Origin: Bacteroidota bacterium
Lineage (GTDB): Bacteria; Bacteroidota; Bacteroidia; Palsa-965
Direction: 5' to 3'
DNA: 64,000 nt
Assembly (NCBI GenBank): GCA_013298545.1
Contig: JAAFIA010000010.1
Coordinates: 5,789 to 69,788 of the forward strand
The notes under the pieces were generated by a model that saw only the letters and a list, made by a program, of their open reading frames with translations, was not told where the DNA came from and made no database searches. The translations under genes were made by a program, and so were the position numbers. The number at the start of each line of letters is the position of its first letter. Positions within the stretch are counted from its first letter, which is position 1. Shown here in pieces: positions 11,702 through 13,502 of this stretch.

Positions 11702-11745
11702 AAAAAAACCATATCCACGCAAAATGTACGTGGTATATGGATTTT
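11702..11745 (-). terminator. Rho-independent terminator for the 22-aa peptide gene
   Basis: Minus strand ccatataccacg-loop-cgtggatatgg followed by a T run, about 30 nt after the peptide stop. Confidence 0.7.
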
Positions 11746-11773
11746 CACAGGATTAGGACGTACTAAATTACAT

Positions 11774-11842
11774 CTACCAACCACCATTGCCATCAGTACC
11801 AATGATACCTAATGCTCTTAAAATTGCTTGAATGAGTTCCAT
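11774..11842 (-). CDS. Unannotated 22-aa peptide MELIQAILRALGIIGTDGNGGW
   Basis: Hand translation; A-rich translation-initiation region typical of Bacteroidota (aaaaacaaaagaaaaATG); own terminator; divergent from the 517-aa regulator-like gene. Confidence 0.65.
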   Translation of the reverse strand: MELIQAILRALGIIGTDGNGGW

Positions 11843-11948
11843 TTTTCTTTTGTTTTTGGTTTCTACGAATGTCTAAAAACAGTCGATCCAAATTAGGGTA
11901 CTTTATTCAACAAAATGGACATTCAAAAATCATTCAAAACCAAACGAT

Positions 11949-13502
11949 ATGACACGACTACAAAACCTACATAAGTTAGTCCACAAGTTAAAGTCGGAAG
12001 AAGTTGAAGTATGCAGAAGGCTTCTTACTGCTTTTGATCGGAGAGGAATTAAGTTTGATAACAAAGCGGTTAAACTTTTTGAAACGCTGTTAGAAGATCA
12101 AACGGGGGAATATACGGAGGTGTTCATATCAGAGAAGATATACGGGGGAATAAAAATTACTGCTATTCAAAAATTACAAGTCCGGCTAAAAGCTAAAATT
12201 TTGGAAATGCTGCAAATGGATATAAACATTGAACGTGAAGATACTTACCCTATTAGATTACAAGTCCTTTATTCCATCCGAAAACAACTTAACTACGCTC
12301 AAATTCTTCAAGCCCGTTCAATGACTTCTATGGTGCTGCATCTATACGACGAAATCATACAGCAAGGTGTACGTTACGAATTATGGGAGGAGGTAATAAC
12401 TGCTGCTCGTTTTAAGTGTGGACTAGTGGCAATTTCTATGGGCCAAAGCCAATATGAAAAATGTGCTCAATCATGGAAAGAATACAGGCAAATTTATCGC
12501 GCTTGTGCATTTGCTGAAAGTAAATACAACGAGTTGGTTCTCATCACAAATTATAGATCTTGGACTGAAAAAGATTCTATAAGACTTAGAGAAAACATAC
12601 TGAAATTGATGCAACTATTCGAGAAAACAAACTCGGCAACTATTGAATATCATTTAAGGCGTTTAGAGGCGCACTATTATCAGCAGCATTATGAGTATCG
12701 AAAAGCCGACGAATGTTTGCGACGAATAGTAGTTTTAACAAAAGATTTTGATTCTGTTGCAACAAAATCAAGGCATTCTGGGGCATTACTAGATATTGCT
12801 CAAAACAATATCTATTTGCGCGATTTTGAAACTGCTATCTCTAACACATTTACCGGACTTAAATACGTTCCGGCTACTCACAGCACCTCAGTATTTTTTA
12901 TGGAACTTCAATTTTATTGTAATTTCTATTTAGGTCTATATGAAAAGGCGTTAGGTTGTTTGAAAAAAGTCGTGAAACTTACTGAGAACTTTGGTTGGGG
13001 TTTTCAAAAAGGGAAATGGTCTTATCTTATCGCTTGTTGTGAGTTTGCGCTTGGAAACTATCAGCAAGTAGATACAATTTTACTTGCTGTTAATCCGATA
13101 GAAAACGACAAAAATGGGTGGAATCTTGGAGTTCGTTTTTTGTTAATCCTAAGTAATATAGAACGAGAAAAATTTGATGTCGCTAGTAGTAGATTAGAAA
13201 CTATTCGTAAACAAGTAAATCAAAAATCGCATAAAAATCTATCTCCAAGAAATAAAAGAATTATCAGTTTGTTACTTGCTCTTGACAGAAAAAGTTTTCG
13301 CTTTTCTGATCTTACGATCAAACAGCAAAAAGCATTAGCGGACTTGTCAAGTTCTGAAAATAATTTACGTTGGGAAATACTTAGCCCTGAACTAATACTA
13401 TTTCACGCTTGGTTAAGTTGCAAAATTGAGAAAGTTCCTTTTCAGCAAAAAACACCAACCATGTTGGTTCGCTCGTCGGAAGCATTAACAATTGCAGTTT
13501 AA
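11949..13502 (+). CDS. All-helical TPR-like protein with putative N-terminal DNA-binding region (Bacteroidota-type regulator)
   Basis: 517 aa; LHKLVHKLKSEE...KLFETL N-terminus; TPR-like units such as FYCNFYLGLYEKALGCL and ACCEFALGNYQQV. Confidence 0.65.
   Translation: MTRLQNLHKLVHKLKSEEVEVCRRLLTAFDRRGIKFDNKAVKLFETLLEDQTGEYTEVFISEKIYGGIKITAIQKLQVRLKAKILEMLQMDINIEREDTYPIRLQVLYSIRKQLNYAQILQARSMTSMVLHLYDEIIQQGVRYELWEEVITAARFKCGLVAISMGQSQYEKCAQSWKEYRQIYRACAFAESKYNELVLITNYRSWTEKDSIRLRENILKLMQLFEKTNSATIEYHLRRLEAHYYQQHYEYRKADECLRRIVVLTKDFDSVATKSRHSGALLDIAQNNIYLRDFETAISNTFTGLKYVPATHSTSVFFMELQFYCNFYLGLYEKALGCLKKVVKLTENFGWGFQKGKWSYLIACCEFALGNYQQVDTILLAVNPIENDKNGWNLGVRFLLILSNIEREKFDVASSRLETIRKQVNQKSHKNLSPRNKRIISLLLALDRKSFRFSDLTIKQQKALADLSSSENNLRWEILSPELILFHAWLSCKIEKVPFQQKTPTMLVRSSEALTIAV

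Follow-up and report, generated by a model that had tools for sequence, protein, structure and literature searches.

A conserved 22-codon gene divergent from a Rap-like tetratricopeptide-repeat protein in Bacteroidota: a candidate RRNPP-like peptide switch

In this study, we analysed a 64,000-nt stretch of DNA from a Bacteroidota bacterium (contig JAAFIA010000010.1 of assembly GCA_013298545.1, forward-strand positions 5,789 to 69,788), the whole of which is referred to here as the window. Our subject is a 22-codon open reading frame (ORF), P0001, and the gene from which it diverges, which encodes a 517-residue tetratricopeptide-repeat (TPR) protein (Table 1). The P0001 peptide is laid out as a hydrophobic or amphipathic helix of ~14 residues followed by an 8-residue Gly/Asn/Asp tail with a final Trp. 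Of the 20 bases before its ATG 16 are A, and ~30 nt past its stop codon the minus strand carries the stem (11740-11709) and then the U-run (11708-11696) of a terminator-like hairpin; similar hairpin-plus-T-run sequences could be read by eye in the flanks that follow many other copies of the peptide. The first-pass annotation of this DNA had reported the ORF with its A-rich leader, its own terminator and the 106-bp gap to the 517-residue ORF, all of which were confirmed in the sequence. Between the two start codons there is a 9-nt direct repeat (11920-11939) and, 45 nt before the P0001 ATG, one near-match to the consensus of the Bacteroidota -7 box. The promoter reading of this box is weak; among 25 copies of the peptide gene, 14 had an upstream box with one mismatch or none versus 9.65 +/- 2.2 in shuffles, an enrichment that is not significant.

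Table 1. Features of the peptide cassette and of the genes downstream of it (window coordinates)
Feature	Position	Strand	Basis or remark
22-codon peptide gene P0001	11774..11842	-	ORF and translation; profile family membership; codon pattern
Intrinsic-terminator-like hairpin and U-run, ending the putative peptide transcript	11696..11740	-	13 pairs, 5-nt loop
Divergent intergenic region, presumed promoters of both genes	11843..11948		106 bp between the two start codons
517-aa TPR protein	11949..13502	+	Helical N-terminal domain from 1 to ~135, then Rap-like module ~137-508 (model)
207-aa orphan protein X, weak sigma-70 region-4-like helix-turn-helix	13622..14245	+	Alignment layout, sub-threshold Pfam
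Secreted protein, type IX secretion system (T9SS) type B C-terminal sorting domain	14338..15378	+	ATG start may be 14557
871-aa secreted protein, Peptidase_S74 (tail-fibre chaperone) and T9SS type A sorting domain	15391..18006	+	

The cassette differs from its surroundings in base composition, with a GC content of 0.34-0.37 over window positions 11001-14000 (0.34-0.38 for the locus) versus 0.40-0.46 around it. The window contains no Rfam match and no tRNA. The stretch is contained, in whole or in part, in four DNA runs, all of one biofilm-metagenome study. Its assignment to the Bacteroidota is consistent with the T9SS sorting domains encoded near the cassette, and the nearest Era proteins, with identities of no more than 70%, are from metagenome-assembled genomes of Bacteroidota/Bacteroidia.

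Several lines of evidence establish that the 22-codon ORF is a real, conserved gene rather than a chance frame, since a profile made from other genomes ranks it first, its family is linked to TPR genes and its codons show a coding pattern. Six paralogues of the 517-residue protein are encoded in the same genome, and the small ORFs upstream of each were listed. Divergent ORFs of 22-24 codons and of one build (Met, then a hydrophobic helix whose end is of the Leu-Gly-Ile-Ile type, then a short Gly/Asn/Asp/Pro tail) were found at four of the seven loci, namely the window and those on contigs C8, C121 and C123, C8 carrying four copies in tandem and C123 two. A loose motif applied to all 44,823 ATG-initiated ORFs of 15-35 codons in this genome gave 15 matches; the seven with the full pattern all lie 107-377 bp from a TPR paralogue, and the remaining eight are scattered and share nothing else of the pattern. 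When an independent profile of 13 peptides, all from other genomes, was scored on 43,206 small ORFs of this genome, the window ORF ranked first (E 1.4e-4), and the top seven matches, and eight of the ten best, adjoin TPR paralogues.

The linkage was also strict across genomes. In 317 kb of TPR loci with 2,882 small ORFs, the profile of all peptides produced, at a cut-off of E<0.01, 27 matches with E down to 1e-12, every one of them upstream of and divergent from a TPR gene, including two inside over-early ORF calls for which homology-based starts place the peptides 127-140 bp upstream. A six-frame search that started from the peptide and covered 27 genomes of the genus identified 32 matches in nine genomes, 25 of which are copies used to build the model. 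The seven new matches, at five loci in two genomes not in the model (G439 and G440), are each back-to-back with a TPR-family gene, and none of the 32 matches in the 27 genomes lies away from a TPR gene; the window ORF had an E of 1.4e-7 in the whole-genome scan. Small ORF and TPR gene together are well supported as a conserved divergent genetic unit because of the gene family, the strict linkage and the Rap-like fold described below. P0001 is absent from a collection of 15 billion proteins and so unannotated there, which illustrates how genes of 20-27 codons escape annotation.

Seven pairs of peptide copies, comprising 174 codons, were compared as a coding test. Differences at codon positions 1, 2 and 3 numbered 30, 34 and 57, respectively (chi-square p 0.005), and among the differing codons 32 had synonymous changes only and 46 changed the residue. 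In ungapped comparison the ORF was more alike than the 45 nt of either flank in all seven pairs, with identities of 0.48-0.93 versus 0.20-0.56 (and one of 0.84). The frame is open at 20-27 codons in all copies, even at 48% DNA identity (C8a versus L025a). From this pattern of nucleotide change we conclude that the peptide gene is very probably translated.

The 517-residue protein has no Pfam, PHROG or NCBIfam match above threshold, a word-index homologue search with it returned only the query itself, and a related-locus search with P0002 as the sole query found no relative. An exhaustive HMMER search, by contrast with the word index, identified 866 cluster representatives at E<=0.001 and 585 at <=1e-10. 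The 150 relatives listed are mostly of 490-550 residues with end-to-end matches, three being shorter (306, 385 and 458 residues). As judged by sequence, the protein is a member of an unnamed Bacteroidota family, which in an even sample of the phylum is present in 49 of 401 genomes and 28 of 180 genera. Pfam recognised TPR_12, TPR_2 and TPR_MalT in 36, 35 and 15, respectively, of 86 relatives, and no family beyond these generic TPR models. Comparison of the family profile with PDB sequences matched consensus TPR (E 7e-12), LGN (5e-7) and RapJ (7.4e-5 over ~105 residues); the RapJ match is at most a hint of homology to a founding subfamily of the RRNPP receptors, since designed consensus TPR proteins match better. 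No signal peptide was seen at the N-terminus, indicating a cytoplasmic protein.

A structural model was obtained with AlphaFold using 139 relatives as the alignment (predicted local distance difference test score, pLDDT, 95.2; predicted template modelling score 0.92), whereas the fold from the single sequence (pLDDT 37.7) was not usable. The model is all helical, so that the description of the neighbour in the first-pass annotation as an all-helical, TPR-like protein was borne out by the model on the one hand and by the family profile and the Pfam matches of relatives on the other. Foldseek against the PDB gave only generic TPR matches, with Rap at a TMq of 0.40-0.42. In a structural search independent of Foldseek, the top four of 48,161 chains were the phi105 Rap with its peptide (Z 21.4, 298 residues, root-mean-square deviation 4.0), the pLS20 Rap (20.9), RapI (20.5) and NprR-NprX (19.4), followed by MalT domain III (19.2), LGN (19.0) and RapH (18.7), with unrelated TPR proteins from 16.4 and PlcR and AimR at 15.4 and 15.1, respectively. 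Rescoring of the Foldseek list placed Rap and NprR structures in the top 12 of 963 rows (Z 19.8-22.5). The best, RapJ-PhrC (Z 22.5, 317 residues, root-mean-square deviation 4.5), aligns Rap residues 7-371 with model residues 137-508, and the three-helix bundle region of Rap lies within the alignment, which begins at Rap residue 7 and model residue 137. On the model, the protein is a complete Rap-like module after ~135 helical residues, with a predicted C-terminal TPR superhelix of the Rap/NprR/PlcR kind.

Two more specific proposals about this protein were not supported. The helix-turn-helix (HTH) of such a receptor found no counterpart: the N-terminal ~130-135 residues gave a best E of 0.09 against PDB profiles (a kinesin coiled coil) and no usable match in the Atlas, and an HTH read by eye at residues 57-88 is not claimed, as the N-terminal profile searches matched nothing. 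A special likeness to the arbitrium system of phages was likewise not upheld, with AimR at Z 15-17 versus 20-22.5 for Rap and NprR.

The distribution of the peptide was examined at 55 TPR genes, counts from which one locus (L006, genome G013) was left out. A significant peptide match was found at 18 of them, and one more (L013) has three tandem 45-codon variants that were seen by eye. On a quick maximum-likelihood tree of the 55 rows, which has SH-aLRT support only and several long branches, 19 of the 24 rows in three lineages bear peptides, and the 31 rows of other clades have none. Peptide ORFs thus stand beside homologous regulators in one part of the family, the 18 genes that cluster in the tree, which for that part speaks in favour of the proposed pair, and not in the other clades. 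Peptides of class B, which mostly end in Phe, go with a TPR clade of five members with 100% support, and the class labels require nine changes on the tree versus 26.3 in shuffles. The peptide classes follow the TPR tree, which fits cognate pairs. As in RRNPP systems, a small peptide gene adjoins the candidate receptor, both here, in divergent orientation, and at the 18 TPR genes and all 32 whole-genome matches.

Some TPR genes without peptides have arrangements of their own. In 10-11 genomes (L014-L033), a peptide-free TPR subfamily is fixed just upstream of a gene for a 248-residue short-chain reductase (FabG-type, by eye), a position as of a housekeeping orthologue. Three TPR paralogues lie in direct tandem with no peptide gene at L027 (G009:C10:136653-145712), and at L135 (G000:C44) a peptide-free paralogue lies beside a contractile-injection-system tape-measure gene (CIS_TMP, E 1e-60) and a GHMP kinase.

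None of the 24 aligned peptides carries a basic residue at positions 1-4, and their net charge is 0 or -1 throughout. Conservation is highest at hydrophobic helix positions (spacing i, i+3, i+4 and i+7) and at a Gly. The tails are variable, with an Asn-Pro-Glu/Asp-Asn-x-Gly-Gly theme or an aromatic end. Judging by these features, the peptides are probably neither ordinary Sec signal peptides, because a basic N-terminus is lacking, nor cationic lytic peptides. The exported pro-peptide of RRNPP systems, which is cut to a short mature form, thus has no equivalent here as regards the Sec route. For entry into the cell, a possible route is via OppA-type proteins, as the genome has four SBP_bac_5 (OppA-type) binding-protein genes, none of them at the locus.

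The copies also vary in number and length. At L025 (G017:C2:33625-44255), one TPR gene has on its upstream side a tandem array of seven to eight peptide genes whose tails differ, and 3 kb farther downstream is another TPR paralogue, this one peptide-free. Distant TPR homologues from other families of the class (L013, L143, L144 and L154) are preceded by divergent ORFs of 42-50 codons which, as seen by eye, begin with a hydrophobic helix like that of the short peptides, continue with a Ser/Thr/Pro-rich linker and finish in a comparable tail at the C-terminus. These ORFs may be a long pro-peptide form of the same family and, if real, resemble classical pro-peptides; the likeness of L013 to L154 is weak (BLASTP E 0.27), and the peptide profile gave nothing significant on distant TPR loci of other families (L138-L166; best E 0.39). 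At three loci with Phe-ending peptides (L004, L005 and L007), a conserved word of ~12 nt occurs 45-55 nt past the peptide stop, followed by a second ORF of 15-18 codons starting Met-Pro, which is alike in L004 and L006.

Downstream of the TPR gene, the content of the loci recurs. A same-strand ORF of 182-207 codons follows the TPR gene at all four peptide-bearing loci of this genome, that of the window encoding protein X. These ORFs are orphans by sequence but have one common layout on alignment, and in three of the four a sub-threshold Sigma70_r4 match occurs at the same place (E 0.024-0.059). With protein X itself, a word-index search returned only the query, and no relative was found in 40 related genomes and no match in the PDB. 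An RpoA alpha-CTD-like motif noted in the alignment by eye was not picked up by Pfam and was set aside. An X-like gene is not always present in other genomes, and the hairpin in the gap from the TPR gene to X is no more stable than shuffled sequences (z -0.88). Beyond these ORFs, in addition to the two T9SS cargo genes of the window, the C123 locus has a 1,607-residue Por_Secre_tail protein and a CHU_C protein, C8 a SprB-repeat protein and L011 an ORF of at least 896 residues with DUF7948 and a beta-propeller, while C121 has small ORFs only, without known family. The three peptide-free paralogues of this genome have other neighbours. The conserved partners of the cassette are, thus, the downstream sigma-4-like protein and T9SS cargo genes, and not the "virus-like" operon on its other side.

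Two further observations concern the secreted proteins of the window. The second cargo protein in Table 1 joins a Peptidase_S74 domain of the phage tail-fibre type to a T9SS type A signal, an unusual pairing in a cellular secreted protein. Beyond the era gene, the minus strand encodes, at 19355-23437, a pair of large proteins that have NIDO (nidogen-like), PKD and CHU_C domains.

The "virus-like" operon had been proposed as the target of the peptide and its receptor. It is a minus-strand block that occupies window positions 1-11,037 (to ~11,100) and runs on into the first 5.8 kb of the contig (L167:1-5900), where a 542-residue large serine recombinase at the contig end, a second resolvase-like ORF, a MerR-like protein, an LPD1-domain protein and a FlgJ-type muramidase are encoded. 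The rest of the block has ~12 ORFs without a family match. Phage signal in it amounts to a 62-residue ORF that matches a PHROG of unknown function and a 448-residue ORF that weakly matches a tail family, and its 673-residue ORF had no match in 50,697 phage records. From this gene content, the block is probably a mobile element. We rejected its control by the cassette because two terminator-like hairpins separate it from the peptide gene and because no comparable block was found at the other peptide cassettes among the loci scanned; the serine-recombinase character of the element and the near absence of phage matches also speak against the proposal.

The reading that we favour, and that we hold to be evenly poised between right and wrong, is that the 22-mer is the cognate ligand of the adjacent Rap/NprR-like protein, i.e., that the locus encodes an RRNPP-like peptide-TPR switch in a new phylum. 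Of the RRNPP-like pair proposed in the first-pass annotation, the conserved divergent pair and Rap and NprR as the closest structural neighbours were retained, and the HTH, the arbitrium likeness and the control of the operon were not. The two genes would form a self-contained regulatory cassette that was duplicated and diversified in this Bacteroidota lineage, with the peptide gene transcribed alone up to its terminator. Either the entire peptide or just its last 8-10 residues would bind in the concave groove of the TPR superhelix, and binding would alter the hold of the TPR protein on a partner, most likely the sigma-4-like X, in the manner of Rap acting on ComA or Spo0F. X in turn would tune the downstream T9SS-secreted surface proteins, positively or negatively. 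The peptide would be exported and re-imported, as in a quorum-sensing cycle; export is the weakest step of this proposal, because the N-terminus of the peptides is not basic, unlike that of an ordinary Sec signal peptide. A serious variant, by analogy to LGN complexes, is that the peptide is an intracellular micro-protein ligand bound lengthwise in the superhelix. A more elaborate version, which we regard as tentative and rather doubtful, is a full Bacteroidota counterpart of RRNPP in which leaderless ~22-mers are released, their tails are re-imported, and Rap-like receptors with a sigma-4-like partner switch on strain-specific T9SS adhesins. If that version is true, multi-copy cassettes with different tails would be private channels for kin recognition or social gliding.

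A number of observations weigh against a cognate peptide-receptor switch. The peptide is found at only a third of the TPR genes examined, the 18 of 55 noted above, and whole clades (31 rows) are without any. The agreement between the tree and the peptide classes is no proof of co-evolution, because linked genes share ancestry. Helical repeats reach high Z easily, and LGN and MalT trail Rap and NprR by no more than 1-3 Z units. Searches of the N-terminal domain of the TPR protein by PDB profile and in the Atlas revealed no DNA-binding domain, and residues that are near-invariant in the TPR family do not mark peptide binding specifically, since they are common to clades with and without peptides. 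The peptides appear unlike Sec signal peptides, and no exporter was identified nearby by Pfam at the loci scanned. Lastly, as many as seven to eight tandem peptide genes by a single TPR gene (L025) is an arrangement commoner for precursors of ribosomally synthesised and post-translationally modified peptides (RiPPs) or effector peptides than for pheromones.

The alternative that survives best, although we consider it unlikely, is that the peptides are an output of the locus, namely leaderless amphipathic peptides of a surfactant-, bacteriocin- or phenol-soluble modulin (PSM)-like kind, and that the TPR protein and X regulate them or are co-regulated with them. An amphipathic helix of 20-27 residues without a signal peptide, tandem arrays of two to eight copies each with a terminator-like hairpin, and a genetic context in common with secreted surface proteins would all suit this role, as would a possible likeness to staphylococcal PSM genes. 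However, most membrane-active peptides are cationic, unlike the 24 aligned here, and Pfam identified no exporter or immunity gene at the loci scanned. In addition, mere regulation would not call for so strict a one-to-one pairing with a receptor-shaped neighbour, or for peptide classes that agree with TPR clades.

Considerably less probable is that the peptides are RiPP-like precursors or scaffolds, in which the N-terminal helix would serve as leader and the short variable tail as core. The conserved helix and variable tail, the tandem arrays of variant copies and the Gly-Gly close to the C-terminus in many copies are what would recommend it. A double-glycine leader is nevertheless argued against because no more than 0-3 residues follow the Gly-Gly and because no Peptidase_C39 (PF03412) was found in the 97%-complete genome, a family that had a match in 7 of 14 control genomes. 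Few Cys/Ser/Thr patterns open to modification occur in the tails, and, as scanned with Pfam, the ORFs around the four loci of this genome include no recognised modifying-enzyme family and no transporter of the sort expected of double-glycine bacteriocins or RiPPs.

We give very little credence to the peptide as a membrane-active toxin (type I-like) or membrane micro-protein that is linked to the TPR gene only through a common fast-evolving island. The hydrophobic N-terminal half, the low GC of the locus and the mobile-element genes that adjoin some loci are compatible with this, but the hydrophobic stretch of 12-14 residues is too short for a membrane span, no antisense RNA feature or Rfam match was found, and at all 32 matches the linkage is to the TPR gene specifically and not to mobile-element genes. 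Least probable of all is an untranslated ORF, be it a small RNA or a chance frame, for despite the absence of the peptide from protein collections and the lack of significant promoter enrichment, the frame stays open at similar length in copies of identity down to 48%, third-position changes are in excess, conservation is at the peptide level (the profile E reaching 1e-12), and the transcript apart from its terminator folds no better than shuffles (z -1.33) and has no Rfam match.

The cassette pairs a conserved, unannotated peptide family with a family of Rap-shaped proteins directly upstream of T9SS-secreted surface proteins. If a peptide switch is involved, the field of peptide-based regulation would extend to a Gram-negative phylum which is dominant in gut, soil and aquatic biofilms. 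Peptide sensing in Bacteroidota is directly testable at these loci, as chemical synthesis of such short peptides is feasible and the receptor models have high confidence.

Searches of the full-text literature returned no account of a Bacteroidota pair of peptide and TPR receptor. In the consulted parts of two surveys, such systems are treated only within Firmicutes and the mobile elements of these. The consulted part of an RRNPPA survey covers Firmicutes only, with all RRNPPA genes but one within Bacilli (PMC9765709), and that of a second peptide/receptor survey analyses only Firmicutes genomes (PMC10075063). N-acyl-cyclolysines are the sole quorum-sensing chemistry named for Bacteroidota in the consulted part of another article (PMC13419125).

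Among known systems, comparison is possible with some that are alike in one component only. The PSMs resemble the peptides described here in helix, length and tandem arrays, but differ in that no exporter was seen at the present loci by Pfam; PSMs are leaderless amphipathic peptides with a 20-25-residue helix, tandem genes and a dedicated ABC exporter. The TPR domain of LGN/Pins, bound to peptides of Inscuteable, NuMA or Frmpd, scores Z 19-19.6 and holds a long, partly helical peptide inside its superhelix. Although its origin and function are unrelated and only the fold is comparable, such complexes are a possible model for a whole 22-mer bound inside the cell. AimR-AimP of SPbeta-like phages also combines a TPR receptor with a small peptide gene, but it is a weaker match than Rap or NprR, and here no phage context is evident, there is no AimX-like output and the peptide has no signal sequence.

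Closer counterparts are found among the pheromone receptors of Firmicutes. In Rgg-SHP, ComR-ComS and PrgX-PrgQ of streptococci and enterococci, a short hydrophobic pro-peptide is divergent from its receptor, as here, and the pro-peptides have ~17-25 codons without a classical signal peptide, some short hydrophobic peptides (SHPs) ending in Gly-Gly. Those receptors, however, are of ~285-320 residues with an XRE-type HTH, and none was found in the present protein. The SHPs have a basic N-terminus and a hydrophobic C-terminal mature signal, in contrast to the neutral or acidic N-terminus and polar tail of the present peptides, and they use a PptAB/Eep/Opp route that is only putative here. NprR-NprX and PlcR-PapR of the Bacillus cereus group share the TPR superhelix (NprR Z 19.4-20.4, PlcR 15.4) in cytoplasmic receptors with an adjacent peptide gene, but their pro-peptides are Sec-exported and their N-terminal HTH is replaced here by the ~135-residue helical domain.

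Rap-Phr is the system with which the comparison extends furthest. It differs from the cassette in several respects: the present proteins are from Gram-negative Bacteroidota, their likeness to Rap in sequence is limited to generic TPR repeats, and ~135 residues precede their Rap-like part as an additional domain. In the cassette the peptide gene stands upstream in divergent orientation, whereas phr genes are downstream and overlapping, and its product of 22 residues has no Sec signal, whereas Phr peptides are of ~40 residues with a signal peptide. On the other hand, Rap proteins (RapJ-PhrC, 4gyo; phi3T and phi105 Rap; pLS20 Rap) are the best structural match, at Z 20.5-22.5 over 275-319 residues, and they too are encoded beside a small peptide gene; they have no HTH of their own, and none was found here. 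A separate DNA-binding protein may be the partner in the cassette, as ComA is for RapF. In both, moreover, the cassettes are multi-copy, fast-diverging and often near mobile elements. Our verdict is that the locus is best read as an RRNPP-like logic that is carried by an unrelated sequence family in a new phylum.

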